Assembly: GCA_958431815.1 (NCBI GenBank)
Contig: CAUASB010000002.1
Location: 121,690-185,689, forward strand
Length of the DNA stretch: 64,000 nucleotides
Direction of reading: 5' to 3'
Source of the DNA: an uncultured Eggerthella sp.
GTDB lineage: Bacteria; Actinomycetota; Coriobacteriia; Coriobacteriales; Eggerthellaceae
Shown here: one piece after another, positions 2,634 to 49,992 of the stretch
Layout: each line of letters opens with the position of its first letter
Position numbering within the stretch: the stretch's first letter is position 1
Program-made: the position numbers and the translations under genes
The notes under the pieces: model-generated
Seen by the model: the letters and a program-made list of their open reading frames with translations, nothing else
The model's database searches: none
Told to the model about the DNA's origin: nothing

Positions 2634-4970
2634 TTATTTGGAGGAAGTGGTTCCCGGCATCATACGACGCGCGTCGAATACACCATCGACGGTACGAAGC
2701 TTCGACAAGATGCGATCGATAACTGCCGTGTCCGAAACCTGGAACAAGAAGCGCATTTCAACCATGCCATCGCGATGTGTGTTCGTGTTAACCGAAAGCA
2801 CGTTGGCGCCATGATCGGAAAGAACCGACGCCACATCGATAAGCAGGTTCAAGCGATCGAGCGCTTCCACGAAGATCTCGACGTTGAACGAAGTGCCGCC
2901 TGAAGGGCCGTCCTCCTCCCAGAACACCTCGATAATGCGCTCGGGATGCTTCTTCAACTCTGCTGCATTCGGGCAGTCGTCGCGATGGACCGAAACGCCG
3001 CGGCCGCGGGTAACGAAGCCCACGATTTTATCGCCCGGTACTGGGTTGCAGCAACGGGAAAGACGCACCAGAACATCGTCGATGCCTCGCACCACCACGC
3101 CATTCGAAGAATGCGTTTCGTGCTTCTTGGGACGCTTCACGCTGGTGAGCATAGGCGGCATCTTACCCGTCGAAGATGCCGAGGTGCCCATCAGGGGCTT
3201 CGACGCCTCTTCGGTGCCGTTGTCCACCAAGATCTTCAGCATGCGGTTGGCAACATGCATCGGCGCTTCCTTGCCGGTGCCGATGTTCACCAGCATATCG
3301 TCGGCATCCTTGTAGCCCATGGCCTCGGACACCTCGCGCATGGCGCGCATACTCTGGGCACTGGAAATGCCGAACCCATGCTTGCGCATTTCGCGCATCA
3401 AGATGTCGCGGCCTTCCTGCAAATCGTCGGAACGGCTGATCTTGGCGAAATATGAGCGGATCTTCGAACGGGCCGAAGGCGTTTTCACGATGTTCAGCCA
3501 GTCGCGCGAAGGCGTGGCGCTTTTCTGGGTAAGGATCTCTACGCGGTCGCCCATCTGCAGCTTGTAGGACAGGGGCACGATGGAACCGTTCACCTTGGCG
3601 CCCACGCAGTGGTAACCCACTTCCGTATGGATGGCGAAGGCGAAATCAACCGGAGTGGAACCGAAGCGCAGGCTCATGGCCTTGCCCTTCGGCGTGAACA
3701 CGTAGACTTCCTTCGGATCGAGGTCGGTTTTGAGCGATTTCAAGAACTCGCGCGAATCCTTGGTTTCGTCCTGCCAATCAACCATTTCGCGCAGCCAGGC
3801 AATCTGCTTGTCGAACGCCGATTCGGCACCCTTGCCGCCCTTTTCCTTGTAGCGCCAATGCGCCGCAACGCCGTATTCGCTCATGCGGTGCATTTCCTCG
3901 GTGCGGATCTGCACTTCAAGCGGGCGGCCTGCTGGGCCGATGACCGTGGTATGCAAGCTCTGGTACATGTTGAACTTCGGCATGGCGATGTAATCTTTGA
4001 AACGCCCGGGCATCGGGTGCCACAGGCTGTGCACCGCGCCCAACGCCGAATAGCAATCCTTCACCGATGTGGTGATAATGCGCACGGCGATAAGGTCGTA
4101 GATCTCAGAAAAGCCCTTGCCCTTCTTCGACATCTTCTGATAGATGGAATACAAGTGCTTCGGGCGGCCCATGATTTGGGATTCCACGCCGATTTTGCTC
4201 ATTTCGCCGCGAAGGATGGAAATTACCTTTTGCAGGTACTCCTCGCGGTCGTGGCGTGTTTCGGCAACCATGCGGGAAACCTGCTTGAACTTGGTAGGCT
4301 CCAGGTAAAAGAACGCCAAGTCTTCCAATTCCCATTTGATGGAGCTGATGCCCAAGCGGTGCGCAATGGGAGCATAGATTTCCAGCGTTTCGCGTGCCTT
4401 GAAGATGCGGCGGTCTTCGCGCAGCGCGGAAAGCGTGCGCATGTTATGCAGGCGGTCGGCAAGCTTGATAACAATAACGCGAATGTCTTTGCTCATGGCA
4501 ATGAGCATCTTGCGGAACGTCTGCGCCTGTTCGTCGGAAAGCGTTTCAACCTCGATCTTCGTGATCTTGGTAACGCCATCGACCAAATCGGCTACCGAAT
4601 CGCCGAACAGCTCTGCCACCTGCTGCTTAGTTGCCGTGGTGTCTTCCACGGTGTCGTGCAAAAGCGCAGCGATGAGCGTTTCAACGTCCATGTGAAGGTC
4701 GGCCAAGATGATGGCAACCTCTACCGGATGGATAACGAAGGCCTCGCCCGACTTGCGCTTTTGGCCGGCATGCATCTTTTCCGCAAAGTGGAAGGCCTTT
4801 TCCAGCAAGGCCAGCTCGTCTTTGTCCAGATAGGTGGAAGCCAGCCCTTCAAGCGCCTTGAAACGCTCTTGCGGGTCGGAGCCAACCGGCGCCGAGGTGG
4901 CTGATTTGATGGTGGGGTCAACGGAAGAAGCCACCAAGCCAACTGGATGGAATTCGTTGGTGTCAGACAT
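2634..4970 (-). CDS. rel: Bifunctional (p)ppGpp synthetase/hydrolase (RelA/SpoT family)
   Basis: 778 aa with HD hydrolase region (HDTVEDT), RelA_SpoT synthetase region, TGS and ACT-like C-terminus. Confidence 0.9.
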   Translation of the reverse strand: MSDTNEFHPVGLVASSVDPTIKSATSAPVGSDPQERFKALEGLASTYLDKDELALLEKAFHFAEKMHAGQKRKSGEAFVIHPVEVAIILADLHMDVETLIAALLHDTVEDTTATKQQVAELFGDSVADLVDGVTKITKIEVETLSDEQAQTFRKMLIAMSKDIRVIVIKLADRLHNMRTLSALREDRRIFKARETLEIYAPIAHRLGISSIKWELEDLAFFYLEPTKFKQVSRMVAETRHDREEYLQKVISILRGEMSKIGVESQIMGRPKHLYSIYQKMSKKGKGFSEIYDLIAVRIITTSVKDCYSALGAVHSLWHPMPGRFKDYIAMPKFNMYQSLHTTVIGPAGRPLEVQIRTEEMHRMSEYGVAAHWRYKEKGGKGAESAFDKQIAWLREMVDWQDETKDSREFLKSLKTDLDPKEVYVFTPKGKAMSLRFGSTPVDFAFAIHTEVGYHCVGAKVNGSIVPLSYKLQMGDRVEILTQKSATPSRDWLNIVKTPSARSKIRSYFAKISRSDDLQEGRDILMREMRKHGFGISSAQSMRAMREVSEAMGYKDADDMLVNIGTGKEAPMHVANRMLKILVDNGTEEASKPLMGTSASSTGKMPPMLTSVKRPKKHETHSSNGVVVRGIDDVLVRLSRCCNPVPGDKIVGFVTRGRGVSVHRDDCPNAAELKKHPERIIEVFWEEDGPSGGTSFNVEIFVEALDRLNLLIDVASVLSDHGANVLSVNTNTHRDGMVEMRFLFQVSDTAVIDRILSKLRTVDGVFDARRMMPGTTSSK

Positions 4971-4972
4971 GG

Positions 4973-7900
4973 CTATCGTTCCTCCTGATATTCAGTGATG
5001 GGAAGCAAAGGGCGCCTGATGCGGTTTTGCAGCTCTTCAGCCGAACCGGAAAGCACCCAGTCTTTGAAGGTCGCAAACGATTCGCGCTCGTCCATGCCTT
5101 CGCGATAGCGCACGCTATCGTCCAGCTCGACCTTGCCCTTATAGTCTACGACATTGATGCTTTGTTCCTTGCCCGGAACCCCAGCGCAACCCTGAGATTT
5201 AATAAGGCCCAGCTCTTCGAACACCGAAACGCCGCAACGAACCTGTGAAGCGGTAATGGCGGCTCCCAGCAAGCGTGAAGAGCTTTTCGCTGCGCTTTCG
5301 GCATCGAGCGGGAAGAAGCCCTGGCCGTTCGCCCGCTGCAGGGCGCGAAGCCCGCGGTAGATCTGCGCCATGCCGTCATGCGTGGGAGCAGCGTCGTCTA
5401 AGATGCCCGCGTTCAACTGCGCATCGGCTCTGCCGAACAGCAAGTGAATCTGCGCCGGCTGCCCATCGCGACCCGCGCGGCCCGCCATCTGGTTGAACTC
5501 GACTTCACTGAAGGGCAAGTGGTACAGAACCACATGGCGCACGCCGGGAATGTCGACGCCTTCGCCGAACGCAGACGTTGCCACCAGAACCTGCAACCCG
5601 CCTTCGCGGAACAGCGATTCCACCCGTTCGCGTTCGGAGCGCGAAAGGCCGGCATTGTAGAAGCCGATGAGCGAGGCAATATGGGGCTCCTGCTTGCGCA
5701 GGCTTCGGGTCAGGGCAATGGTTTCCATGCGCGAGTTCACGTAGATAAGCGTTTTTTCGCCCTGAGCTACCAGGTTAACCAGGTAGCGTTCGCGCTTCTT
5801 CATGTTGCGCTGGTCGACCACGGCAAGGTTGGTACGCTCGTGTTCGTCTACCACCACGCAATCGGGCGCGATGCTGAACGACTCGCAAATGCACTGCTCT
5901 ACCTGGCTGTTCGCCGTTGCGGTAACAGCCAGAACCTGGGGCGATCCCAATGCGGCAACCGACTTGCCCAGCTGAGCATAGAACGGGCGGAACCCCGCTT
6001 TCGAAGTGCCCACATGGTGGGCTTCGTCTACCACCACAAAGCCGATTGATTCCGTTGCCGCGAAATCGGCAGCATGGAACGCCAAATATTCCGGCGTGGT
6101 AAGCACGATATCTACCTTGCGCTCGGCCAAGCCCGCCATAACTGCCGCGCGCTCTTCTGCCGTAGAAGCGCCGGTAAGCACTTCCGAGCGAATGCCGAAC
6201 GAACCAAGCGTGCGATCAAGGTGAAAGGCCTGGTCGGCAACGAGTGCGCGCAGTGGGTACACGAACAAGCTGGACTTGCCGTTGGCAAGGGCTTGCTCCA
6301 CTGCATGAATATGGAAGATGAGCGATTTGCCACGCCCCGTGCCCATAATGGCAAGCGCAGACTTGCCCGCATCGAGCACGCTAAGCGCCTGCTGCTGCGA
6401 TTCATGAAGCTGGGCTTCGCCCAAAAACGCGCCAACCAGAGCAGAGCGGAACCCCGCCGGATCGGCTTTGGCATATTGCTGCCACATAGCACGGTCGGCT
6501 TCCGAGGCAATAAGGCTTTCGTTGTCTTCGCCGGGGGTTTCGTCGTCTTCTTCGGCCACCAGGCCCGATACGAATTCCTTGTCTTCGCCTAAGCACGTTT
6601 CAAGGCATTTGCAGGGAGCCAAGGGTTTCAGCGAAGAGATTACCGCTTTCACCGAACGGCGCCCGCGCCACGTGTCTATCTGCAGCTCGAACACGGCGTC
6701 GAGCGCACACCCGCAGCCCAGCAGCCCCGAGATATCAGGGCAATGGAACATGATGCTTGCCAGGGAATTCACGCCATCGGTAAGCGTGCAGGAAAGGTGC
6801 GTTTTGTCGGCACCCACTGCTCTACCACCGGAAATAACCACGCCATGCGCCAAGAAGTGAGGGCTGGGGTTTTCCTGCCCGAACGGCGCCAGCAAATCGA
6901 GCTTGGCAACGTTTTCAAGCGTGAGCTCGGAAAGGTCGACGCTGGCATCCACCTCAATGCGCGGGATGAATTCCTCGGGCGGAAGCTTGTCCATGTAGGC
7001 GCACAAACGCTCCGAGAATTCGGGCAGCTTGCTGGCGGGAAGCGTTACGCCCACGGCAGCGTGATGGCCGCCGAAACGCGTAAGGATATCCTGGCACGAG
7101 GAAACCGCATCGAAGAGGTTCACATCGCCCACGCTGCGGCCCGACCCGTGCGCTTCGTCGCCTTCGATGGTGAACAGGATGGAAGGCACCCCGTAGCGGT
7201 TGGTAAGACGCGATGCCACGATGCCCTTCACGCCTTCGTGCCAGCCTTCGCCCGCTACCACCAAAGCGCGCTGGCCCTTGAAGGTTTTCTCTGCCTGCTC
7301 GGAGGCAACTTCGGCAAGCTCAGCTTCGATGGTACGGCGCTGGGTGTTCACGTTTTCCAGTTCGGTGGAAAGATGCGTAGCTTCGGCAAAATCGTCGCAA
7401 AGCAGCAGGTCAAGCGCAAGCTGAGCATTGCCCATACGACCTGCTGCGTTCAAACGGGGAATAATGGTGAAGCTTAAGCTGGAAGAGGAAACGGGGCTGT
7501 CGGCGGAACCCGAAGCATTCAACAGCGCCGCGATGCACGGTCGGGGGTTTTCGTTTATCATGCGCACACCCGTGCCCACCAAGGCGCGATTCTGGCTGCG
7601 CATGGGCATAAGGTCGGCCACCGTGCCAAGCGTTGCCAAGTCGATAAGCTCACGCCACAGGTTCGGCTTGCCGAAACGCGAGCCAACCGCCTGCACCACC
7701 TTCAGCGCAACACCGGCGCCGGCCAAAATGGAGCTGGGATTGCCATCGCATTTCGGATCAACCACCGGCACACCAACCGGCACCAGATCGGCTGGTTCGT
7801 GATGGTCGGTGATAACCACATCGATGCCGCGTTCTTTAAGGATTTCCACTTCGTTTTTGGCGGCAATGCCGTTGTCTACGGTAACCACCAAATTCGGGTT

Positions 7901-8332
7901 GCAGGCGGAAGCCCTGTCGATTGCCGCCTGCGAAAGACCGTAGCCCTCTTCAAAACGCAACGGGATGAACGGTGTAACGCGGGCCCCGCATTCGCGCAGG
8001 CCACGCGTCGTAAGTGTGGTGGCGGAAACGCCATCAAGGTCGAAGTCGCCGAACACCAAGATGTGCTCATCGTTCTTGATGGCGTCTTCGATGCGGTTCA
8101 CCGCCGCTTCCATGTTTTCTATTTCATAGGGGTTGGCCCAATCCCGCTCAAGCGAGGGATTAAGGAATTCCTGGGCCTTTTCAACCGTATCGAACCCGCG
8201 TGCAACCAATGTGGTTGCGATGAATTGAGGCAGGTCCAACTCGGATGCAAGGCGTGAGGCTACGACTGGATCAGCCGCAGCAAGATTGATGCGCGCACTC
8301 ATAGCAATACCTACTAACTTTTTTCTTCTCAC
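4973..8332 (-). CDS. RecJ-like ssDNA exonuclease fused to a RecQ-family helicase core
   Basis: 1119-aa single ORF. N-terminal half has DHH motifs (VFGDFDLDGVSATTL, ITDHHEP). C-terminal half has GTGRGKS Walker A, VVVDEAHHV DEAH box, AVTATA, VLVATSAFGEGVD and AGRAGRDGQPA helicase motifs. Confidence 0.75.
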   Translation of the reverse strand: MRRKKLVGIAMSARINLAAADPVVASRLASELDLPQFIATTLVARGFDTVEKAQEFLNPSLERDWANPYEIENMEAAVNRIEDAIKNDEHILVFGDFDLDGVSATTLTTRGLRECGARVTPFIPLRFEEGYGLSQAAIDRASACNPNLVVTVDNGIAAKNEVEILKERGIDVVITDHHEPADLVPVGVPVVDPKCDGNPSSILAGAGVALKVVQAVGSRFGKPNLWRELIDLATLGTVADLMPMRSQNRALVGTGVRMINENPRPCIAALLNASGSADSPVSSSSLSFTIIPRLNAAGRMGNAQLALDLLLCDDFAEATHLSTELENVNTQRRTIEAELAEVASEQAEKTFKGQRALVVAGEGWHEGVKGIVASRLTNRYGVPSILFTIEGDEAHGSGRSVGDVNLFDAVSSCQDILTRFGGHHAAVGVTLPASKLPEFSERLCAYMDKLPPEEFIPRIEVDASVDLSELTLENVAKLDLLAPFGQENPSPHFLAHGVVISGGRAVGADKTHLSCTLTDGVNSLASIMFHCPDISGLLGCGCALDAVFELQIDTWRGRRSVKAVISSLKPLAPCKCLETCLGEDKEFVSGLVAEEDDETPGEDNESLIASEADRAMWQQYAKADPAGFRSALVGAFLGEAQLHESQQQALSVLDAGKSALAIMGTGRGKSLIFHIHAVEQALANGKSSLFVYPLRALVADQAFHLDRTLGSFGIRSEVLTGASTAEERAAVMAGLAERKVDIVLTTPEYLAFHAADFAATESIGFVVVDEAHHVGTSKAGFRPFYAQLGKSVAALGSPQVLAVTATANSQVEQCICESFSIAPDCVVVDEHERTNLAVVDQRNMKKRERYLVNLVAQGEKTLIYVNSRMETIALTRSLRKQEPHIASLIGFYNAGLSRSERERVESLFREGGLQVLVATSAFGEGVDIPGVRHVVLYHLPFSEVEFNQMAGRAGRDGQPAQIHLLFGRADAQLNAGILDDAAPTHDGMAQIYRGLRALQRANGQGFFPLDAESAAKSSSRLLGAAITASQVRCGVSVFEELGLIKSQGCAGVPGKEQSINVVDYKGKVELDDSVRYREGMDERESFATFKDWVLSGSAEELQNRIRRPLLPITEYQEER

Positions 8333-11178: not shown

Positions 11179-12381
11179 CTACCGTATTTGCATAACGAAA
11201 ATCTCGAACAGGGAAACGATGATGAGGAACGCGAAGTTGTACACCTCGAAACGCGCTATGAACTTGCCGTTGTTGCCCAAGCCCGACTTCTGATACTGGC
11301 GCAGCGTGATAAGCGTGGCCAACGAAGAAATGGGCGTACCAACTGCGCCTACATTGGTGCCCAGGGCAATACCCGCCCAGTCGTTGGAAAAATGGCTGAT
11401 CAGGATAGCGCTGGGAACGTTGCTGATAACCTGGCTGCTGATAAGCGAAGTGACGAATGCACCGCACGTAGCTAACACATCGGAAAACAGTTGGGAAATA
11501 GCGGGAATCTGGGCAATGTTGCCGCCGAAAATAAAGAAGCACACGAACGTCAGCACCAGGGCGTAGTCTGTTTTAGCAAACACGCGCCGGTCCGTTATGG
11601 CAAGCACCACCACAATGGCAACCATGCCCATAAGGTACGGCACCGCATCAACCGTCATGGCAATGCACAGCGCAAACAGCACCGTATAGATGGCAACACG
11701 AGGCTTGGAAAGGCGGATGCTTTCCGGTTTCTTGTAGTGGAATTCGGCTTTCTTCACGAAGCAGCAACGCACAAGGATAAGCGCAACCGAAAGGATGAGC
11801 GGCGGCGCCATGGTGGCCACGAAATCACCGAAATCAACGCCGAACACCGAGTACAGATACAGATTGTGCGGATTGCCGAAGGGCAGCAGCATGCCACCCA
11901 AGTTCGCGGTGAGAGTGATGACGATAAATGCAAACGGAATCTCCGCTTCCCTATTCACCGATTTCAGCAGCACCACGGCCAAAGGAAGCACCGTAACCAG
12001 CGTCATATCGTTCGAAAGAACCATGGAACAGCACAGCGTTACCAACACCAATGCAATTACCAACGCCCGTGTGCTGTTCACATGTTCCACCAGGGAATGC
12101 GCCACATATTCAAGCAAACCGGAAGAATCGATGGCGGCAATAACCGCCAAGATGCTGAACAGGCAGGCAAGCGTATGCCAATTGAAGTAGCTTAGGTACT
12201 CCGCAGAAGGCGGCACGAAGAACATGGTCACCAACGCCGCCAGGGCTGAAATCACCAGCAAGGGGTTGTGCGCCAAAGCGCGTTCGGCGGCACGTTCGGC
12301 CGAGCGCGCACGCATCCCCGCAAGGTGAATGCCGTGATGCTTTACGTCCAAATCATCAATATGTTCGCTTAAAAGCTTCAT
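11179..12381 (-). CDS. ArsB/NhaD (CitMHS-like) anion permease
   Basis: 400-aa polytopic membrane protein with the internal repeat architecture typical of citrate/arsenite permeases. The ATG sits 6 nt downstream of a TAGAAT -10 box, so possibly leaderless. Confidence 0.6.
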   Translation of the reverse strand: MKLLSEHIDDLDVKHHGIHLAGMRARSAERAAERALAHNPLLVISALAALVTMFFVPPSAEYLSYFNWHTLACLFSILAVIAAIDSSGLLEYVAHSLVEHVNSTRALVIALVLVTLCCSMVLSNDMTLVTVLPLAVVLLKSVNREAEIPFAFIVITLTANLGGMLLPFGNPHNLYLYSVFGVDFGDFVATMAPPLILSVALILVRCCFVKKAEFHYKKPESIRLSKPRVAIYTVLFALCIAMTVDAVPYLMGMVAIVVVLAITDRRVFAKTDYALVLTFVCFFIFGGNIAQIPAISQLFSDVLATCGAFVTSLISSQVISNVPSAILISHFSNDWAGIALGTNVGAVGTPISSLATLITLRQYQKSGLGNNGKFIARFEVYNFAFLIIVSLFEIFVMQIR

Positions 12382-12542
12382 GGGTCCATTCTACGCCTGC
12401 ATATTCCTGAAGCGCGAATTCACTCGAAGCATTTTTGCGGCTTGATATGGCGTTATGCCCAGTTGCAGCTCAATTTGTAGCGTAGAATCCCCCTATGGCG
12501 TTTCGCCTTTCCGGGCGGCATCTTCGAAGAGAGGTGCGGCTT

Positions 12543-12620
12543 ATGGACCAAGAAACCGTGATTGTGCTTTGCGCGATATTCACCGTGATGATTGGGATCA
12601 TCGAGCTTACCCGGAAATAG
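12543..12620 (+). CDS. 25-aa hydrophobic peptide MDQETVIVLCAIFTVMIGIIELTRK (copy 1)
   Basis: Own -10 TAGAAT (12483-12488) and GAGAGGTG SD. Versus copy 2 there are 8 synonymous and 3 conservative substitutions, which argues that the plus strand is the coding strand. Confidence 0.7.
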   Translation: MDQETVIVLCAIFTVMIGIIELTRK

Positions 12621-12629
12621 GAGAACGGT

Positions 12630-12722
12630 ATTGGAGTATAAGAAGAGCCGGGCAAACCCTCTACAGTAACCCGGCTCCTTAGAACAACGATGCCGCCCGG
12701 CCTGGCGGGACGTCATCTTCTG
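12630..12722 (-). ncRNA. Putative convergent antisense sRNA over the peptide 3' UTR (copy 1)
   Basis: Minus-strand TATACT -10 (plus 12729-12734) sits 5 nt outside the conserved block. Minus-strand hairpin GAGCCGGG..CCCGGCUC (plus 12645-12677) is followed by UUCUUAUACU. Confidence 0.45.
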
Positions 12723-15491: not shown

Positions 15492-16259
15492 CTATGCAAA
15501 CACCTCGTGCAATCCATCCATGATGCGAATAGCCTGCTTCACCTGGACCTGACCAGGCGCAGAGGCTTCTTCCAACGAGCAGAACGTAAGCGCGGAACCG
15601 AAAAGTTCGCCTGCAAGACGAGTGATGCTTCCCTCGCGGCCCATTGCCATGGTCAGCAAAGGTTTGTCGCTATGAATGCGAGACACTTCCTCAGTTGCGG
15701 CCAAAAGCTTCAGTGCGTCTTGGGCACCATGCGCCATAGTTGCGATTTTGGGAATATCGGCGCCCAGATCAACCATATGAGTAAGGAGGTTTACCATCCA
15801 TTCAACGGAAGGCGTTCCTGCGAAGTTGTGATAAGAAACCACCGTTTTGACGTTGTGCTCTTTTGCGCACGCAACAAGCTCAAGAACAGCTGCATCGCCG
15901 ATCCAGGTTTCGATATCAACAAGATCTACCGCTTCGGCTTCGATAATCGACTTGTTAAGCGCGCCGTATTCTTTCACCGGGATGGTAAGACGACCGCCCT
16001 GACTCGTTGAACGGAACGTGAAAAGAAGGGGGCTATTGGGAAGCGCCTTGCCAATTTCCATGGAATGCTCTGCCATCTTTTGCGGATCGTGCACATCTGC
16101 CGCAAAATCACCACGCCACTCGAAGCACTCAACGCCAGAGGCGATGCCCTTTTCGATTAGCTCAATGTTTTCAGCAACGTGAGCGCCCATAAGAGAAATA
16201 ATCGTTTTTGGGCGGCCTTCACCAAGTTTTACCCCTTTAATATCAAGCGCCTGAACCAT
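15492..16259 (-). CDS. aroD: 3-dehydroquinate dehydratase type I (start at MVQALD; the track ORF extends to 16439)
   Basis: Type I DHQase fold over about 255 aa, including the Schiff-base-lysine region. Confidence 0.8.
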   Translation of the reverse strand: MVQALDIKGVKLGEGRPKTIISLMGAHVAENIELIEKGIASGVECFEWRGDFAADVHDPQKMAEHSMEIGKALPNSPLLFTFRSTSQGGRLTIPVKEYGALNKSIIEAEAVDLVDIETWIGDAAVLELVACAKEHNVKTVVSYHNFAGTPSVEWMVNLLTHMVDLGADIPKIATMAHGAQDALKLLAATEEVSRIHSDKPLLTMAMGREGSITRLAGELFGSALTFCSLEEASAPGQVQVKQAIRIMDGLHEVFA

Positions 16260-16475
16260 ATTTCCTCCCAAAACCAAAGCCCTACGGCTTAAAGATTTTC
16301 CTATCAGCAATTCGTATACTAACGTTTTATTGACCAGCGGATTAGATGGTTTAGGCATCCGCTTCATTGCTTTTGAGGAATGATTCCTGAGTTTGCGCAG
16401 ATTCGACCGTCGCTCAATTTGGCGCTTCGCAAAAGGCAAAGAAATCCATCCGTTCTTGGAGGGTGTTCGGCGCTC

Positions 16476-16828
16476 TTAAAAAAGACAGCTTTCGATGATG
16501 CCCCTACCCCTTAGCTGCTCAATCCACTCTTTTGGTATCGCACCGTATCCATATTTGATGCCCGCCAAGCCACCGGCCACGCAAGCAGTGGTGTCGGTAT
16601 CGGAGCCCAGGTTAACAGCAAGAAGCACACAATCCTTGTAACTGTCCGTCTTTTCTAAGCACCAAAAGGCAGCGCCCAACGTATCCAGCACGTACCCGCC
16701 GGCTGGTCGTGCGAGCCATGGCCGACCATTTCCGTTGCATGAAATGAGCCTCGACCCATGAACTCGTAAGGAACGCCGAGCGCGTCACCAACCGCAGCCC
16801 CGTAAACCGCATCTTTCAAAGTAGCCAT
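16476..16828 (-). pseudogene. ADP-ribosylglycohydrolase remnant
   Basis: N-terminal 48 aa MATLKDAVYGAAVGDALGVPYEF..GHGSHDQPAGTCW, then stop. C-terminal about 70 aa ..VLDTLGAAFWCLEKTDSYKDCVLLAVNLGSDTDTTACVAGGLAGIKYGYGAIPKEW. The two frames overlap at about 16686-16700, consistent with an out-of-frame deletion of roughly 170 aa. Confidence 0.75.
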
Positions 16829-17151
16829 GATTCCTCTTTTTGTTTCTTTCCTCTTCTTTCGTTACGGACTTTGAAATAGGCGGGTTCGCCATCTTCTTCG
16901 TCCAGTCCCTCGTCTAGCTCGGGAAAACCTCTTTTCGACGTTGCCAATGAAGCTAACGTCAAGAAAGCATTTCCCTTCGCTCGGAAGGCGTCCGATAGCG
17001 GCGATTTTATGGAAATCGAAGAATTATTTACCGTTCAAAAAGACGGAACCATTAGGAGAATCAGAAGATGGGAAGCTTCCTTCATCTGTGAGCTAGCCTA
17101 GAAAAACCCCTTCTAGACTTATATCAAACCAACGGGCAAGCGGCAGAGCAG

Positions 17152-17712
17152 GTTTGATTACCAGTCAGTTCGACACTGCTCCAAAACTGTGAAGGCGGTT
17201 TGAACCATCGGCGCTAGGTTTGATTACCAGTCAGTTCGACACTGCTCCAAAACTAGCAACGGGAAGGCGGAAGGAGCTTTCCGTTTGATTACCAGTCAGT
17301 TCGACACTGCTCCAAAACTCGAATGCAGCTTCTAAATCCCAGTAGCCTGTTTGATTACCAGTCAGTTCGACACTGCTCCAAAACGACACCGATTCAATCC
17401 ATTTTATCGGCAGGTTTGATTACCAGTCAGTTCGACACTGCTCCAAAACCGAATGGCATAGCCGAATTTCATAAAGTAGTTTGATTACCAGTCAGTTCGA
17501 CACTGCTCCAAAACTCATGCCGTTTGACAGATTAAAGCCGTCGCGTTTGATTACCAGTCAGTTCGACACTGCTCCAAAACGCTTCTGCATACGTCTTTGC
17601 TCGTAGGCAAGTTTGATTACCAGTCAGTTCGACACTGCTCCAAAACGCCGAGAGGATCCCGTTCGCGCCGATCGACGTTTGATTACCAGTCAGTTCGACA
17701 CTGCTCCAAAAC
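17152..17712 (-). CRISPR. CRISPR array: 9 identical 36-nt repeats (plus strand GTTTGATTACCAGTCAGTTCGACACTGCTCCAAAAC) and 8 spacers of 29-30 nt
   Basis: Repeats start at 17152, 17218, 17283, 17349, 17414, 17479, 17545, 17611 and 17677. The crRNA-sense repeat (minus strand) is GTTTTGGAGCAGTGTCGAACTGACTGGTAATCAAAC, typical for type II-A. The leader is next to csn2. Confidence 0.95.
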
Positions 17713-17767
17713 CGTTGGGGCAAAATCCCTTCTGCATAGGGACGGCCAAACTAGACTGGCAAACTTA
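17713..17767 (-). promoter_or_regulatory. CRISPR leader and promoter region (minus-strand TTGATA overlapping the csn2 stop)
   Basis: Position between the csn2 stop and the first repeat. Confidence 0.4.
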
Positions 17768-18448
17768 TCAATATTCAAGAAAGTCCAGGTCAATTACTTG
17801 TTTTCTCTCATACTGATAAGATTCAGCATCGTGCTTATTTTCCAGCATAAGCACCTTGGTTTTCGTATAAAAAATGTGCTCGTAAAGCCTTTTTAGCTCG
17901 TTTTTCGTCAAAAAAGTTTTGAGATTCACAAACAACAAGACCTTACTACACTTTGCGTCAAGAGCTAAAGAAAGAAACGATATCAGGCTATCAATGAGCT
18001 TTTCTTCGGGCATCGCATCGACCCCGAAACCCAGCATTTTCAAGCACTTGGGCAAATTCCATTCTATTCCAAAAGCATAGTCAGCAGATAGTCCACCGCT
18101 CAGTTCCATCAACCTGGAAGCAAAAACTTGCTCTACCTTTTCAAGGCCCATCCTCGTATCTTCATCGTCGATAAGGTCCTTTTCGATACGCTTAACGACC
18201 TCACCCAAAAGAGATCGATCATCCCACGGCAGATTGAAAACATCAGGGACAAAAAGGAAAGAACCTTTCGGCGATACTTCTTCCTCATTTTCCCAGAGAG
18301 AATATGCCTCTTTGGCATATCTCCCCTCTTGGGAAACGAGAGAACCCACTAATCTAGAAAACAAAGCCTGGTTTTCAACCTGAAAAACAGAAGGGAAACC
18401 AGAATCAATCTCTAGAGCCTGTTCTAGCCCTTCAAATACGAGCTTCAT
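17768..18448 (-). CDS. csn2: Csn2 (short form, type II-A)
   Basis: 226 aa. KVLLFVNLKTFLTKNELKRLYEHIFYTKTKVLMLE resembles the Streptococcus pyogenes Csn2 C-terminal region. Sits downstream of cas2. Confidence 0.8.
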   Translation of the reverse strand: MKLVFEGLEQALEIDSGFPSVFQVENQALFSRLVGSLVSQEGRYAKEAYSLWENEEEVSPKGSFLFVPDVFNLPWDDRSLLGEVVKRIEKDLIDDEDTRMGLEKVEQVFASRLMELSGGLSADYAFGIEWNLPKCLKMLGFGVDAMPEEKLIDSLISFLSLALDAKCSKVLLFVNLKTFLTKNELKRLYEHIFYTKTKVLMLENKHDAESYQYERKQVIDLDFLEY

Positions 18449-18780
18449 AGGATCAGTAATTCTTCCATAGTGTCAACCTCGTCATATGCAGGGCGACTTC
18501 CCGTGATGAACTCCATAGTGGCATATGCTGCTTCGGAAACCTTCAAAACTTGAACAAGACCAGCAGGAGGTTTGTTCTTCCTCAATCTTCCTATAGCCGC
18601 ACCCGCCGCACCTTCATTAACCACGAGCTTTGCGTAAACGGATTCCTGCAGTTGAAGGTACCCATCCTTCAACAAGAACTTACGAAAAAGCCGATAATCT
18701 TTTCGCTGCTTAGCAGTTTTTACCGGCAAATCGAAAAATACCATTAACCTCATGTAGCGAATCCGATCTGAACCACTCAT
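18445..18780 (-). CDS. cas2: Cas2
   Basis: 111 aa; MRLMVFFDLPVKTAKQRKDYRLFRKFLLKDGYLQLQESVY. Confidence 0.85.
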   Translation of the reverse strand: MSGSDRIRYMRLMVFFDLPVKTAKQRKDYRLFRKFLLKDGYLQLQESVYAKLVVNEGAAGAAIGRLRKNKPPAGLVQVLKVSEAAYATMEFITGSRPAYDEVDTMEELLIL

Positions 18781-19655
18781 GCGACCTCAAAAGGCTCGAT
18801 TTCGCTCAAGGAGAGCTTTCTTCCAAGGGCGCTTAAACAATCTTGGACGTACAGGGAAATCACCGAGCTCAAACGGTAAGAGCCACCACGATAAGGAATT
18901 GCGGTATTCAGCATATCAACCAATAACCGCCTGATGCTCTTAGAAAACTCACCCTCGACATTGTCGTAAACCAATTTGTCGACAATGGGGCGAAACGGCT
19001 CCATAAGGTCACAGCTTAAATTGTATTGATTGTATTCGTTTCTGTGGCAGATGCCGATTTGGGTCAAATAGCCCCTTGCCACAATCTCCCTGTTAACCGA
19101 AGAAAGCAAGATTGAGTATCCGTAATTGAGTGCGGCATTCGTTGGAGTGTCTTGCTCTCGAGAGAATTCATTGCCAAACAAGGCTTGGAAATAAATCCGG
19201 GCCGCATGGGCTTCCCTTTGGGTTGGGTCACCCGAGCGAACCTCGGGAACGAGCTCCCGCAAACGAGCGCCCCACCCTTCTTCGGCACGAGCTTCGAGCA
19301 CGGCTGCTTGATGGGTAATTTTGTCCTGAACCACGCGCTGCCATACCCGTTTCTTGATTGGCTCACCCCATTCAAGCTGTTCACCAATCCTTTTGCTAGT
19401 GTTGTGCGCACCATATAAAGGCAAATACTGACCAATCGGATTTCGCTTCTCATCGGAAATCACAAGCGGCACCTTCTTCTTCGCAAGCTCCGATAAAAGG
19501 TAGGCGCTTATAAACGCCTGGTTGGTCTGCAAAACCACCGAGGAAAGATCGTCAAGATGAACCTTTGCGGTATCGTCTTCCTTCCGGATAACCATATACC
19601 CGCCCTTATAGGTGCACTTGCAGGGGCTCTCGATTATGACGTTTCTAAAGCCCAA
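18777..19655 (-). CDS. cas1: Cas1 (type II)
   Basis: 292 aa; N-terminus MGFRNVIIESPCKCTYKGGYMVIRKED is collinear with the Streptococcus pyogenes Cas1 N-terminus. Confidence 0.85.
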   Translation of the reverse strand: MGFRNVIIESPCKCTYKGGYMVIRKEDDTAKVHLDDLSSVVLQTNQAFISAYLLSELAKKKVPLVISDEKRNPIGQYLPLYGAHNTSKRIGEQLEWGEPIKKRVWQRVVQDKITHQAAVLEARAEEGWGARLRELVPEVRSGDPTQREAHAARIYFQALFGNEFSREQDTPTNAALNYGYSILLSSVNREIVARGYLTQIGICHRNEYNQYNLSCDLMEPFRPIVDKLVYDNVEGEFSKSIRRLLVDMLNTAIPYRGGSYRLSSVISLYVQDCLSALGRKLSLSEIEPFEVA

Positions 19656-22600
19656 TTCGAGTCCGTCTCTCGAACATACCCGTTACGGACTGATCAACGA
19701 TTACAAAATCGACCTCCGGATCAGAGATAAGCTTTGAATAATTCGGCTGCAGTGCCCCAGCGAACTTGCTCCCGCCGACCATCGAAAGATCAACTTTGTT
19801 CATCACGGCATTGATCGAAGAGATTAGAGACCTTACGGCGCTTATTTTAGAAACAGAGTCAACGCTAGCAAAAGCCTCCTTAACATCGTCGATATGAAGA
19901 ATATCGTAGTGCTTTACTCCAATCAGCTTGCCTTGCTTTGATATTGAGAGGAATACCGCTTCAGCAGACCCAACCCTCTCATTTAGAGGAGCACTCTCAT
20001 CGAGCATGTTAGACAGGCATTTAACCTCATCTTGCGAAAAGGAGAGTTGGCGAGCATTTCTCATCTCGCTCTTTCCGGTAACTGAAAATCTATCCCCATC
20101 AATCTCAATCAGTTGCTTCTTGAGGATCTTCGCCCTTTCGATGCGAACAAACTTGAGCTTCTCGGCTTCAGCAAGCTCCATCGCATAGCGCTCTAAGGCG
20201 CTCTTATCCCCCTCTATTTGAGACGCCAACCATACAGGGACTTCTGCAAAACGGAACACCCGTTTATCCTTCTTGTCTCGTGCTTCATATACGAAGAAGT
20301 AGGCAAACTGCTGGCTTGAGAAACCACCGTATTTCTTCGGATCAAGACCCTTCTTCAAAGGAAGGGCAAGCTTCGGGCCCATTTTTGGATCTCGCGGAGA
20401 ATAAATCGTCGCCTTCCAGAATGTTCCCGTATCCTCAACAGGCATACGAGAGATATAGCACTGCCTACAATTCAGCGCTTTGCGAATACCCTCAACCTCA
20501 GCTTCGGCATCCCAAGCATCCTTGAATATCTCGCCCGTTTCCTTATCGAAGCCCGAGCTCATAAAGCTGTTCACGATAAAGCCGCTCGTGCCTGGCGCAT
20601 GATGGTCGCGATTGAACAACTTCGACTGTTGACGAACATATTTTTCCATCGCACGAGTCATGGCGATGGGATTCTCGTATACCTTCGGATGGCGCATCTG
20701 AATAAACAGGCCCATGCGACACGCCAAATAAGCATCGTGCGCATGATGGAAATCGTTCGCCTCACGGCACTTTACGAAACCAGCAGCCTCACGCAAATCA
20801 TGAGACATGCTCGCCTTCACAGGAACGATTTGCGTTTCAGGGTAGCGAACAGAAAGCAATGACCCGGCAAGCTTAACGCTTTGGCTGGTTTCTACTAGCT
20901 GACGAGCAACAAAACCTTTCATCGCCTTTTCATCAATACGGTCGCGCAACAAATTGCGATGTTTCTTCGGGCCGATTAGCTTCGCGTCAAGAAGCGCATT
21001 CCAATACGGCTTCATCTTGTGACGAATTCCCTGAGGGAGAAGCATTGCATCGGTTTTGCTTTGGTTGAATTCTCTTAGCACCAAAGCCTTATTTTCCAAG
21101 CTATCGTCTTTGATGTACGAACGGGGGATGATGTGGTCCACCTCGTAATCGCCGCTTGATAACCTATTGATGTCGATAGGCTCACCGGAATACAGGCATT
21201 TGCCGCATTGCATGAAATACAATGTCAACCTCTCATCGAGTTCTACAGGCGAAATGCCTTTCAGCTCCCCTAAGGTTTCATTCCCTCCCTTGCAATACTC
21301 TGGATATTCTTTTTTGAATACCGTCAGCGCCTCTTTCAGCGCATCGTAGCGACGCTTGGTTCTTTTCCCTCGCTTATCCAGTTCATCATCACGAGTAACC
21401 TCGATAAATACGTTTTTAGGATCTTTGCCGGCAATCTTAGCAATCTCGTCCACAATGCGGATGGTTTGGTTCAAGTTCCTGCGGATAGCGGGAGAGCCAG
21501 GCAGTTCGTTCACTTCAAGGGATTTTCCCTTTTTGCCGAAGTAATTCTGGTTGAATTCATCGATCTTCTTTTGGAAGCCCAGATCTTCATCGCGAAGGAT
21601 TTCCATCATCACCATGGTGCGACCCTTGCTGCCTGCATTTGGATCACCTTCACGGAGCACATCCATGATAGAACGGGGTCCACAATCAGTATCTACCTTG
21701 ATACCGGTCAGGAACCTCTGGGAGAGTCTGCCCCACCCAGTGAAACGCTTACGGCAAATCTTCCTGATCTGCTCGTTATTCAAGCGACCATTCCCTTTGG
21801 GGCCATAGGTTTCCTCGAGCTTTTCCTTAAGGATCTTCCTATCCTCGAACAACGTATTCCACAGGATAATCTGCTCAATCATTGGGTAATCGGCAGGGTC
21901 AATTACATCAACGTCGAAGATATCCTTTCGGAAGAAGAAATACGATGAGAGCTTCGACTCGTAGCCGCTTTCACCTTGGCCGCCACGAACATGAACGTTC
22001 ATATGACCAAGCTCACGCTCAAGAAAGTTCGCGACGTCTTTGTACTTAATGGTCTTCTTTTTCTTGAACAGCTCTTCGATAATGGCTTCCCTATCGGCAG
22101 CATCGAATCGGTATTCCCTATCACCATCCATGCTCCACTTAGAACCATTGAGTTCATTGAGCACGCAGTACTCTTCGTATAGCAAAGAACACTTCGGCAG
22201 CACGTCTTCGCCTTGAAGGTATGAGCACATGCCCGTCATGCGCGTGATAAATGCTTCGGCACTTTTGCCCTTGTCGATAACCTCGTCCCAATTCCATGGG
22301 GTAATAGCAACACCTTCCATGCCAGGCTTGCGCGCAGACCAAGCAAAACGATTCTGGCCATGCTTATCTTTACGCGCATTCTTGCTGGTAAGCGGGCCAA
22401 CATAGTAGGGAATACGGAACGATACAAGAGATTTGATTTTGCTCGCGTTTTCCACAAGGAAAGGATAGTGCTTGCCCTGGTTTTCGATAATGGCACTCAG
22501 CTCTTCGAGATGCAGCTGATAGTAAATACTCCCATTGTCGCTGGTCTTCAGCCTACGCAAGAACCGTTGCTCTCCAAAATCAGCCATCATACGCTGGTAG

Positions 22601-23857
22601 CGCGGATCTTCTTCTGCCGCACTTCCCGCAAACAGCTTTTTCACTGCTTTTTCGAAGTCCTCGTACGCCATCTTGGAAGTGCCTAAGTTGTACTTTGTGT
22701 AGCCCTTAGCTTTTGAAGCGTTGTAGATGTTCAGCACACGCCCATCTGCATCACGGTAGAATTCGCCTCTGAAAAAAGAATCGTATTCGCTTGGAACGTA
22801 TTCGCGAACAAGCGCCTTGAGCGTTTTAAGGTCTTCGGCGTACTTGCAGTATTTAGCAACCATATTCGACGAAATGGTTTCGCCCGGCGCATACGACAAA
22901 AGCCCCTACAGCACATAAGCCGAGTACACCCCGCAAAGCGCGTTGAACAGTTCTGCCCCCCTCATCGGGAATCGCTTCGCGCAAAGCATCTACCGCTTCA
23001 TCGTTAGAAAGGTAGATGGAGGTTTGCTCTGCCGTCATTTCGCCAAACACATTCTTGAACTCGGCTTTCAAGCCAACCATGGCTCCCGCCAAAGCATCGT
23101 TGCATGCTTTGCTTTCCTTCGCGCCGTCGTTCATAGCAACTCCAATAAGAGACGCAATTCGCTTCTTTTTATCGGAATTGGCAGTGTGCTCTTCCTCAAG
23201 AATCGAAAGGATCTTTTTCGGCCTTTCATCTTGTGCGCCAGGATCAAATTCGTAACCAAGCTCGGCACACCAATCCGCCAACGCCGACCACAACGACCTC
23301 AGCGCATCAAGGGGCTGAGCATTCTTAGCACTCAGGTTCGTGCTTTCCTGGCGAAGGAAATTGCCACGATGCTTCACGATGTTATGCGCCGCCAGATAGA
23401 TAAGACGGATATCGGCCTTTTCATTCGTTTCCATAAGCCACTTACGAAGGTGGTAAATGGTAGGAAATTTCTTGTAGTAATCCGCTTCCGCGAAATCCGA
23501 ATCATTGAACAAGGGATGACCGTATTCACGATGATCCTCTTCCCTGTCTTCCTTCAGCAACCGCGCCTGACGAAGCCTGATAAAGAATTCAGGATCGACC
23601 TTCGAAACCTCTTCATCGAAGAGGCCTTGCAGTAAATCCAGGCGCCAACGACGACGAACATACCGCCTGCGCTGCCCACGGGGAATCCGAGCAGAAGCAG
23701 CTGTTTCTGCTGTATCGAACAATCGACTGCCCCACGTAGGCTGCTTCTTGAAATGGAGCAATTGCCCATCTTCATCGGTTACTGCCCAGCCGACCGACCC
23801 AGTGCCCATGTCCAGGCCGATATTGTATTCACCTTTGTAGTTCCTTAAATTAGCCAC
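19645..23857 (-). pseudogene. cas9: cas9 (type II-A) disrupted by a -1 frameshift and an in-frame TAG
   Basis: N-terminal frame (to 22853) has RuvC-I IGLDMGTGSVGWAV and is collinear with SpCas9 up to ..IPDEGG. C-terminal frame (19645..22905) has the HNH motif DYEVDHIIPRS and RuvC-III NDFHHAHDAYL. GTG start at 23857. Confidence 0.8.
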
Positions 23858-23892: not shown

Positions 23893-24030
23893 TCCCGATG
23901 ATTACCAGTCAGGACGACACTGCGAGTCAAAATACGGCCTAGCCAAAAATGTCTCTCTTATGAGTGACGTCCCGTAGGGGACAAATCTTTTGACTTGATA
24001 AAGAGCCTCATTGGAGGCTCTTTTTTTGTT
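23893..24030 (+). ncRNA. tracrRNA, divergent from cas9
   Basis: Anti-repeat 23898-23934 (GATGATTACCAGTCAGGACGACACTGCGAGTCAAAA) is complementary to the crRNA repeat with bulges. Downstream are GUCCCGUAGGGGAC and a terminator AGAGCCUCAUUGGAGGCUCUUUUUUU (24002-24028). Upstream is TTGAAT-16-TACAGT. Confidence 0.7.
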
Positions 24031-46141: not shown

Positions 46142-49657
<3,516 letters not shown>

Positions 49658-49956: not shown

Positions 49957-49992
49957 AAAAAAAAAGAACCGCCTGAAGGCGGTTCTTTTTCT
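49957..49992. terminator. Bidirectional intrinsic terminator (A9-GAACCGCC-tgaag-GGCGGTTC-T5)
   Basis: Perfect 8-bp GC stem flanked by A- and T-tracts. Terminates the DUF1292 gene on the minus strand. Confidence 0.7.

Follow-up and report, generated by a model that had tools for sequence, protein, structure and literature searches.

A probable recent cas9 pseudogene in a complete type II-A CRISPR-Cas locus of an uncultured human-gut Eggerthellaceae

The stretch of DNA analysed here (64 kb, hereafter the window) carries a complete type II-A CRISPR-Cas locus of an uncultured human-gut Eggerthellaceae, comprising tracrRNA, cas9, cas1, cas2, csn2, leader and array. Its cas9 gene is, with high probability, a real and recent pseudogene, interrupted by a single-nucleotide frameshift and by a nonsense codon in the restored frame. 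The initial annotation of this DNA had proposed real, recent pseudogenisation and not a programmed event, and this is supported by intact alleles in near-identical strains and by a further strain that carries the frameshift only. The case is an ordinary one, that of a recently dead defence gene.

The cas genes lie on the minus strand in the order cas9-cas1-cas2-csn2, as identified with Pfam, an operon of the type II-A layout of which csn2 is the subtype signature. Intact copies were found of cas1 (18777..19655; Pfam Cas_Cas1, E = 7.5e-28), cas2 (18445..18780; Pfam CRISPR_Cas2) and csn2 (17768..18448; Pfam Cas_Csn2, E = 1.2e-17), in agreement with the initial annotation, and those of cas2 and csn2 are the same as in conspecific loci. 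The copy in conspecific contig L015 matches cas1 in length and in amino-acid sequence, and cas1 is free of internal stops; its DNA is the same in eight of the ten conspecific loci (nothing differs in 17713-19644), and L014 and L016 show a single synonymous difference at 18855. No base of the leader and tracrRNA region differs from intact-cas9 strains. The CRISPR array (17152..17712, minus strand), the leader side of which adjoins csn2, consists of nine exact copies of the 36-nt repeat GTTTTGGAGCAGTGTCGAACTGACTGGTAATCAAAC, the number of perfect repeats reported previously, and eight spacers of 29-30 nt. Such repeats, spacers of ~30 nt and a position beside the operon are those of a type II-A array. 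Intact-cas9 strains also have spacers 5 and 7, at the trailer end of their arrays, and spacers 1-4 are unique.

A candidate tracrRNA, also listed as intact in the initial annotation, was identified on the plus strand (23898..24030), divergent from cas9. It is made up of an anti-repeat (~23899-23932), a small hairpin (23969-23982) and a terminator hairpin (24000-24023; terminator scan), followed by a T run. The candidate is predicted to be complementary to the repeat, as expected of a type II-A tracrRNA, with the repeat:anti-repeat duplex having a predicted energy of -46.8 kcal/mol versus -16.3 +/- 3.1 for shuffles. An Rfam scan of the locus gave no match to a tracrRNA family and a single sub-threshold chance match. 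The locus resembles the type II-A loci of S. pyogenes and S. thermophilus in having the same order (tracrRNA divergent from cas9, then cas1, cas2, csn2, leader and array), 36-nt repeats starting GTTTTGGAGC and spacers of ~30 nt. It differs from those of Streptococcus in its actinobacterial host and in its interrupted cas9. Wherever the upstream flank of a fetched locus was read (L013, L025 and the conspecific loci), the locus follows pth and prs at the same place on the chromosome.

The cas9 pseudogene as a whole spans 19645..23857 (minus strand) and would encode 1403 aa once one G is removed and the TAG is read as Gln. This repaired translation differs from that of an intact allele (P0121) only by Q317* and S794N. 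Pfam domains across the gene are Cas9-BH, Cas9_REC, HNH_4, Cas9_RuvC and Cas9_PI, and the repaired protein aligns full-length to solved Cas9 structures. Those of SpCas9 were matched at E ~1e-164, with alignment over residues 10-1274 (reference chain 8tzz_A, tag offset 18, for phmmer alignment). The protein is similar in size to SpCas9 (1403 versus 1368 aa) and shares its bridge helix, REC, HNH, RuvC and PI regions; it has diverged from SpCas9, with roughly a third of residues identical as estimated by eye in one aligned block. Members of the same clade include Cas9 of Coriobacterium glomerans PW2 (62% identity) and of Eggerthellaceae MAGs ('Eggerthella sp. CAG:209', UMGS1632 and HGM04342; 82-91% identity). 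The C. glomerans and Eggerthellaceae MAG orthologues are intact single ORFs, unlike the copy in the window.

Two reading frames (both minus strand) bear complementary sets of Cas9 domains. The N-terminal frame (22853..23857; 334 codons) has a GTG start with a strong AAGGGGGA Shine-Dalgarno sequence upstream, and consists of authentic residues 1-300, covering RuvC-I, the bridge helix and the beginning of the REC lobe, and of an out-of-frame tail of 34 residues ending at TAA. The C-terminal frame (19645..22899) contains the remainder of REC, RuvC-II/III, HNH and the PAM-interacting domain. It extends for 1084 codons from a TTG (22899-22897), the point at which the initial annotation had correctly placed the resumption of the long ORF, with an alternative ATG at 22863; gene callers begin the C-terminal piece of conspecific contig L012 at the equivalent ATG, giving 1072 aa. 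The three-segment RuvC nuclease is represented by N-terminal IGLDMGTGSVGWA, with the catalytic Asp motif, aligned on SpCas9 IGLDIGTNSVGWA, and by Cas9_RuvC in the C-terminal ORF (E = 7.6e-16), and the HNH domain inserted in it by HNH_4 (E = 7.1e-19). Cas9-BH, the Arg-rich bridge helix, was found in the N-terminal ORF, and Cas9_REC (E = 1.4e-111) and Cas9_PI (E = 1.6e-40) in the C-terminal ORF. No single uninterrupted frame holds all of these domains, since the frame shifts after codon 300 and codon 317 is TAG. Judged from its sequence, this is a Cas9 gene by descent and not a functional member of the family.

The first lesion (22956..22961, minus strand) is a run of six G (CCCCCC on the plus strand), longer by one nucleotide than the G5 of intact alleles, which shifts the frame after Gly300. 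The second (22906..22908, minus strand) is a TAG (CTA on the plus strand) at codon 317 of the restored frame, which arose from the Gln codon CAG when C became T at 22908; read in the shifted frame, this substitution turns an Ala of the junk tail into Val. Both had been described at these positions in the initial annotation, and the frame does read ..AIPDEGG before leaving the Cas9 frame. Its account of the restored stretch also holds: this reads AELFNALCGVYSAYVL*GLLSYAPGETISS with TAG as the 17th codon, and AELFNALCGVYSAYVL aligns on SpCas9 ADLFLAAKNLSDAILL (phmmer). That SpCas9 has Ser at the position of the TAG is correct (Ser303, phmmer), but the gene's own Cas9 family has an invariant Gln there, the 12 other sequences of a 13-sequence alignment all encoding it as CAG or CAA. 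The suggested repair, the addition of one G, fails, as the resulting G7 frame has 50 stops. The frame is restored either by G5 (one G removed, ..DEGAELF..) or by G8 (two added, giving the ..DEGGAELF.. of the initial annotation). Because every intact relative has the shorter run and DEGAELF, the lesion is a 1-nt insertion and not a deletion, and the informative state in reads would be G5 and not the G7 that had been named as refuting it. A private missense change was also identified at 21476 (minus strand; AGC to AAC, Ser794Asn) in the motif GSPAIRRSLNQ; Ser794 is invariant across the 11 intact alleles of the cluster and all other relatives retrieved.

Comparison with conspecific genomes, which the initial annotation had called for, was carried out base by base with ten contigs from nine human-gut metagenome samples. 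In nine near-identical contigs (eight samples), the two sites read G5 and CAG (Gln) and Cas9 is intact at 1403 aa. The intact allele P0121 is encoded by eight contigs read, L014-L019 among them, and P0001 is a one-residue variant of it; both are of exactly the repaired length and carry DEGAELF...VLQGLL. L012, from the ninth sample (SRR10816085), has G6 without the TAG. The extra G is thus confined to the window and L012, and the T at 22908 and the A at 21476 to the window, with C at 22908 in all ten contigs, L012 included. As in a unitary pseudogene, the lesions are absent from conspecific intact alleles (G5 in nine contigs, CAG in ten). Over 7.6 kb, the three cas9 positions (G6, 22908 and 21476) are the sole differences between L019 and the window, and over 16.1 kb L015 differs at the same three and at two others. 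Eleven other sequences aligned across the G-run site are all single-frame, and the run is interrupted in sister lineages (GGGCGC or GGGGCT). Neither product of the window's two cas9 ORFs (N-terminal, 334 aa; C-terminal, 1072 aa) returned a record on exact look-up; nor did a look-up of the 1119-aa product of 4973-8332, sought in order to widen the baseline comparison. The G5/G6 junction was not found in a scan of JGI metagenomes.

When 29 other genes of the window were set against conspecific contigs, 28 proved unchanged in length and free of internal stops, and the 29th was not locatable by its ends. The excess of differences in cas9 is a weak one: three of the five that separate the window from L015 fall in cas9, which makes up 26% of the 16.1 kb (binomial p ~0.11). 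Singleton substitutions number 1-2 in broken alleles and 0-3 in intact alleles, a pattern in which the signal of relaxed constraint is absent; as broken alleles have no more singletons than intact ones, decay beyond the lesions themselves is not demonstrable. An argument for purifying selection, drawn from the synonymous-only differences among the contigs coding for P0121, was rejected as circular, these contigs having been retrieved by exact protein identity.

Loss of cas9 may have been selected and not neutral, as an escape from self-targeting autoimmunity or as a means of keeping a targeted prophage or plasmid, and this we regard as doubtful. It is reportedly a known pattern for cas genes to be inactivated where a genome carries self-targeting spacers, and within this group at least four independent cas9 knock-outs have left the rest of each locus intact, with a codon-233 nonsense allele present in at least three samples. 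However, with up to 6 mismatches allowed, no spacer matched any part of the 64-kb window beyond the array. Likewise, the eight spacers gave no exact matches in IMG/VR, and the array had no match among GenBank phages and only chance-level matches among plasmids (E = 0.5). In addition, cas9 accounts for 69% of the cas coding sequence (from coordinates), so a first lesion landing in it needs no special cause; four first lesions in cas9 would be expected by chance at 0.69^4, ~0.23. The locus is comparable to degenerate CRISPR-Cas loci (e.g. Stern et al. 2010) in that the nuclease gene is disabled by point lesions, recently and in a strain-specific manner, with array and neighbours persisting. It is unlike the self-targeting genomes of Stern et al. 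2010 in that no self-targeting spacer was found in the 64-kb window.

It is quite improbable that one or both lesions are artefacts of sequencing or assembly in an intact cas9, that is, a homopolymer miscall or a base-call or strain-mixture error at 22908. The G6 does sit in a homopolymer, an intergenic T8/T9/T10 run at 49965 also differs in length from relatives, and the TAG and Ser794Asn calls come from the window's own sequence only among all records compared. On the other hand, G6 recurs in L012, which comes from a different run and was assembled separately, the T run is the one further 1-nt indel in ~45 kb compared with short-read metagenome contigs of the species, and none of the 28 other evaluable genes is damaged. 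The G6 is accordingly unlikely to be an assembly artefact, and the frameshift is enough by itself to inactivate cas9, should the TAG prove erroneous.

As a mildly curious aside, cas9 has been knocked out independently four times in related lineages, each time within codons 196-300.

A further possibility is that Cas9 is split and not dead, with residues 1-300 and a piece re-initiated at TTG 22899 or ATG 22863 assembling on the guide RNA. A natural two-piece Cas9, if real, would explain both the clustering of knock-outs in codons 196-300 and the otherwise perfect loci. Both lesions lie in the equivalent of SpCas9 REC2 (~residues 286-303), a region where deletions are tolerated with ~50% activity retained (PMC8476515) and where engineered splits in loops give functional Cas9, the fragments of which auto-assemble on sgRNA (PMC6709367). 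Moreover, the stop of the N-terminal piece (22853) overlaps ATG 22863, which permits translational coupling, and the TAG falls in a stretch used by neither piece. The likeness to engineered split Cas9 (rapamycin-inducible, sgRNA-assembled and ΔREC2) extends to a break in the REC2 equivalent, a region that tolerates engineered splits and deletions, but the window's gene has a frameshift, a junk tail, ~30 residues lost and no evident second initiation signal. Specifically, ATG 22863 is not preceded by a good Shine-Dalgarno sequence, residues 301-331 are lost (the start of the second REC1 segment included), and the C-terminal piece has its private change at an otherwise invariant Ser. The nonsense allele of L026 has an additional 12-bp deletion, and the clustering statistic is post hoc, based on few events, some of which were found by a route biased to N-terminal breaks. 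The arrays of related strains speak for the pseudogene and against a working split protein. Those with intact cas9 have different leader ends although only 0-6 substitutions per 6.6 kb separate the strains, whereas three equally close strains that share the codon-233 nonsense allele have identical leader spacers, with none newly gained. A split but active Cas9 is considered very improbable.

Least credible of all, to the point of being nearly dismissed, is the idea that one or both lesions are bypassed by design, whether through programmed +1 frameshifting at GGG-G, through recoding or suppression of TAG, or through phase variation of the G tract as a switch toggling immunity. GGG GGC permits +1-frame re-pairing of P-site tRNA-Gly and the population holds both G5 and G6, but the two-frame arrangement occurs in no relative, the TAG descends from an ordinary CAG codon, a suppressor tRNA was not found in the window, and the TAG lies after the shift site, such that slipping back cannot rescue cas9. 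Programmed recoding is ruled out because TAG is a normal stop here, ending 13 of the 33 long ORFs in the window (cas9 among them), and because relatives, those of the sister lineage included, do not conserve the G run; neither a conserved slippery site, two-frame layout or stop, nor a TAG set apart from ordinary terminators, was found. Phase-variable homopolymers are usually at least 7 nt and vary in length back and forth in close strains; this tract is 5-6 nt, with two lengths only (G5 in nine contigs, G6 in two).

For the pseudogene, the order of events was probably intact, then frameshift, then nonsense. One G inserted in the G5 run takes translation out of the Cas9 frame after residue 300, and a stop follows 34 codons later. 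The frameshift is placed first because another sample (L012) carries G6 alone; as the window and L012 share no other marker, G6 may have two separate origins, and it is only parsimony that favours this order. TAG and Ser794Asn would then have accumulated in an already dead gene, and with TAG present in the correct frame a slip back to G5 can no longer restore cas9. Full-length Cas9 is presumably not made. Maturation of crRNAs, which depends on tracrRNA, needs Cas9 as well. Since type II-A interference, crRNA maturation and spacer acquisition all need Cas9, the whole locus is probably functionally silent, and the array would be frozen although cas1, cas2, csn2, tracrRNA and repeats are still perfect. 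The view in the initial annotation that only the effector is being lost thus stands insofar as the other parts look intact, but is understated, as in type II-A systems Cas9 is required for spacer acquisition too (Wei et al. 2015, PMC4335292).

A search of the literature on natural cas9 pseudogenes found nothing directly relevant. No concept is changed by this case, since decay of cas genes is well known. For annotation, the locus should be described as a cas9 pseudogene with a non-functional type II-A system and not as an active defence. It offers a dated snapshot of the death of a CRISPR system, in which a single-base insertion was probably followed by a nonsense codon that blocks reversion, with the other components identical to the working copies of sister strains. 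The alleles now available comprise intact copies, one with the frameshift alone, one that adds the nonsense codon and, in relatives, three more independent knock-outs; for natural gut populations, such a set could be used to test whether growth of the array is arrested after loss of cas9.

The CRISPR-Cas locus of the window is a canonical type II-A system. Downstream of cas9 on the minus strand are cas1 (19655-18777), cas2 (18780-18445) and csn2 (18448-17768), each identified by Pfam, and a CRISPR array (17712-17152) of nine exact 36-nt repeats and eight spacers of 29-30 nt. A tracrRNA candidate was identified upstream of cas9 on the opposite (plus) strand, with an anti-repeat at 23899-23932 and a hairpin and terminator with a T run at 24000-24030. 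The repeat:anti-repeat duplex is calculated at -46.8 kcal/mol, against -16.3 +/- 3.1 for shuffles; an Rfam scan of the locus returned no matching family.

cas9 itself is divided between two minus-strand ORFs. The N-terminal ORF (GTG 23857 to TAA 22853), starting five bases past AAGGGGGA, contains the Cas9 bridge helix (Pfam) and translates as MANLRNYKGEYNIGLDMGTGSVGWA...AIPDEGG followed by 33 unrelated residues. The C-terminal ORF (TTG 22899 to TAG 19645, 1084 codons) possesses the Cas9_REC, HNH_4, Cas9_RuvC and Cas9_PI domains, and the second minus-strand frame reads AELFNALCGVYSAYVL, a TAG stop and then GLLSYAPGETISSNMVAKY... The initial annotation had described two inactivating lesions, a G run at 22956-22961 (plus-strand CCCCCC) and an in-frame TAG at 22906-22908 (plus-strand CTA); the sequence and a scripted check, which also covered the TTG codon (22899-22897), agree with both positions. 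Its proposed repair by one added G fails, as the resulting seven-G frame has 50 stops. Codons at the run are GAG GGG GGC in the N-terminal frame and AGG GGG GCA in the C-terminal frame, and the working states are five Gs (one removed, ..DEGAELF..) or eight (two added, ..DEGGAELF..), both of which restore a 1403-codon frame where the TAG, at codon 317, is the sole internal stop. The frameshift alone is predicted to disable cas9, TAG or not. The TAG arose by a C-to-T change at position four of what was ancestrally CTGCAG, a palindrome of the PstI type (window 22905-22910, minus-strand CTGTAG).

The repaired protein (one G removed, TAG read as Gln) matches solved Cas9 structures nearly end to end (E about 1e-164 for the SpCas9 chains). 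In an alignment to 8tzz_A (numbering shifted by 18 relative to SpCas9), AELFNALCGVYSAYVL stands opposite ADLFLAAKNLSDAILL, the frameshift falls at SpCas9 residues ~286/287, the TAG at Ser303, a serine as initially proposed, and ATG 22863, the nearest Met codon downstream, at Met321. REC2 occupies approximately residues 167/180 to 297/307 of SpCas9 (PMC8476515), and with these limits the alignment puts both lesions where the REC2 equivalent ends. At E <= 1e-20 the repaired protein has 4505 relatives, the top one being P0001 (1403 aa, about 100% identical); the one with a name is Coriobacterium glomerans Cas9 (62%). Among species-representative genomes, matches came only from Eggerthellaceae and Coriobacteriales metagenome-assembled genomes (top 91%), which makes the host an uncultured member of the Eggerthellaceae from the human gut; two record names include 'human gut metagenome'.

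P0001 and P0121, intact alleles differing by one residue, both carry ..AIPDEGAELFNALCGVYSAYVLQGLLSYAPG.., that is, five Gs and a Gln where the window has the TAG. At 22727 it is the P0001 lineage that has the derived state, since all other relatives share the window's Ile. The indel is an insertion, from five Gs to six. Base-by-base DNA comparison outside the array, covering ten contigs of the same species (L001-L003, L012, L014-L019; nine samples), found the extra G in the window and L012 (Logan assembly of SRR10816085) only, and T at 22908 (TAG, not CAG) and A at 21476 (AAC, not AGC; Ser794Asn) in the window only. These three are the sole differences from L019 over 7.6 kb, and L015 adds just two upstream sites over 16.1 kb, 31691 (missense in a DivIC-domain gene) and 29258 (synonymous). 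The DivIC-domain gene also has a 6-bp in-frame indel (TTGCCT; window 30923, L001 and L002 2930-2935), carried by L001 and L002 (388 aa) and missing in the window, L014, L015 and L016 (386 aa). None of the ten contigs differs from the window in cas2, csn2, the leader or the tracrRNA region, bar one base in L017 (23968, within the tracrRNA candidate), and cas1 has a single synonymous difference, at 18855, in L014 and L016 only. Exact repeats, Pfam matches and this comparison uphold the initial description of nine perfect repeats, intact cas1, cas2 and csn2, and a tracrRNA candidate. The most parsimonious order of alleles would be intact (P0121), then six Gs (L012), then six Gs with TAG and S794N (window); six Gs is the sole marker common to the window and L012, so two independent insertions are possible.

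An assembly artefact would account for the TAG and S794N being private to the window, and as a look-up of its own two cas9 products in the records found neither, both calls are those of the assembly alone. Against an artefact, the six-G run recurs in the separately assembled L012, and about 45 kb of the window compared with metagenome contigs contains one other single-base indel, in a T8/T9/T10 run at 49965. Furthermore, 28 of 29 other genes compared have the same length and zero internal stops, the 29th being unevaluated owing to a SNP in its anchor sequence. The T run (minus strand, ~49957-49966) is upstream of rpoB and has nine Ts in the window, eight in L022 and L023 and ten in L024. Antisense to rpoB (49657-46142) and rpoC (46141-41750) is a 2238-codon stop-free ORF (41792-48508, plus strand), which was rejected as a real gene: the 2636 codons of rpoB and rpoC include no TTA or CTA and one TCA (20 such codons in 1085 for the cas9 C-terminal ORF), leaving the codon-aligned antisense frame stop-free as a codon-usage artefact.

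Three more independent cas9 knock-outs, each in an otherwise intact and syntenic locus, were found among fragments of the P0001 90%-identity cluster and two truncated homology-search hits. In L013 (9386-9440) a run of five As has become four, shifting the frame at codon 231. A CGA to TGA change at codon 233 occurs in at least three samples (L020 6673-6700, L021 1515-1545, L026 1210-1240), with a 12-bp in-frame deletion on top in L026. In L025 (about 5860), from a species about 85% identical, a stop replaces Trp196. Counting codon 300 of the window, the primary lesions number four; they occupy a span of 105 codons out of about 1400, and every one lies in the REC2 equivalent. The chance of so small a span for four uniform events is about 0.002 by our own post hoc arithmetic, with only 15 of the 73 P0001 cluster members covered by the listing and with L025 and L026 drawn from top-scoring hits, which biases toward breaks near an end. 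Singleton substitutions number 1-2 in broken and 0-3 in intact alleles; there being no excess in broken alleles, all these inactivations appear recent. As cas9 makes up 69% of cas coding length, first hits in it require no special selection. In L020, prs (ribose-phosphate pyrophosphokinase; 3936-4916) is called as pieces of 142 and 171 aa rather than 323 aa, either a second broken gene in that contig or an assembly error.

The window array (17152-17712) was compared with those of L001, L014, L015, L016, L020, L021 and L026. Only its spacers 5 and 7 are shared with strains that have intact cas9, at the trailer end in L014 and L015, while spacers 1-4, adjoining the leader, are unique; spacer gain in the window lineage therefore went on beyond its split from these strains. 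Intact strains (0-6 substitutions per 6.6 kb apart) have 14-25 spacers to the window's eight, with common trailer spacers and 1 to 20 new leader-end spacers each. Leader spacers 1-5 are identical in L020, L021 and L026, which share the codon-233 allele and differ only by loss of one internal spacer. These patterns fit an arrest of spacer gain after cas9 loss but are suggestive only, because the latter three are also sequence-identical. Targets of the window spacers were not found in the window itself, IMG/VR, GenBank phages or plasmids, and autoimmunity is a hypothetical cause of the cas9 loss. The L025 array (11374-12661) has an internal three-spacer duplication (8-10 repeated as 11-13). In the interval from the array to the DHquinase gene (window about 16260-17150; L001 18144-18317), conspecific contigs have only a 57-aa ADP-ribosylglycohydrolase fragment, probably another gene remnant, where the gene of sister lineage L013 encodes 252 aa (15643-16401).

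REC2 deletions retain about half of activity (PMC8476515), and engineered splits in REC2 loops function, with pieces able to assemble unaided on the guide (PMC6709367), so a tolerated natural split Cas9 formed by the two ORF products is conceivable. It is nevertheless unlikely, as ATG 22863 has no convincing ribosome-binding site, the split form would lack about 30 residues, broken alleles carry secondary changes (S794N in the window, L141P and R495C in L013, the 12-bp deletion in L026) and nonsense-allele arrays are static at the leader end. Bypass by programmed frameshifting or TAG recoding is rejected: in a 13-sequence DNA alignment 11 of 11 other sequences are single-frame, sister lineages have GGGCGC or GGGGCT at the run, 12 of 12 others have CAG or CAA at the TAG, TAG terminates 13 of 33 long ORFs (cas9 among them), the window's only tRNA is tRNA-Leu(taa), and slippage or reversion to five Gs would give no rescue with the TAG downstream of the shift site. 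With near-identical intact alleles (P0001/P0121), recoding rejected and an artefact unlikely for the six-G run, the earlier reading of real, recent pseudogenisation is supported; judged from sequence, we regard a recent cas9 pseudogene within an otherwise pristine type II-A locus as a real finding.

Cas9 is required for tracrRNA/RNase III crRNA maturation and for interference. It is also essential to type II-A spacer acquisition, for which its nuclease activity is not needed (Wei et al. 2015, PMC4335292). A cas9 null is therefore predicted to silence the whole locus, and the window locus is expected to be silent throughout. Its cas9 pseudogene adds one more case to a well-known class of events, and the intermediate allele, together with the clustering of knock-outs in one region, is the sole feature that might reward more work.
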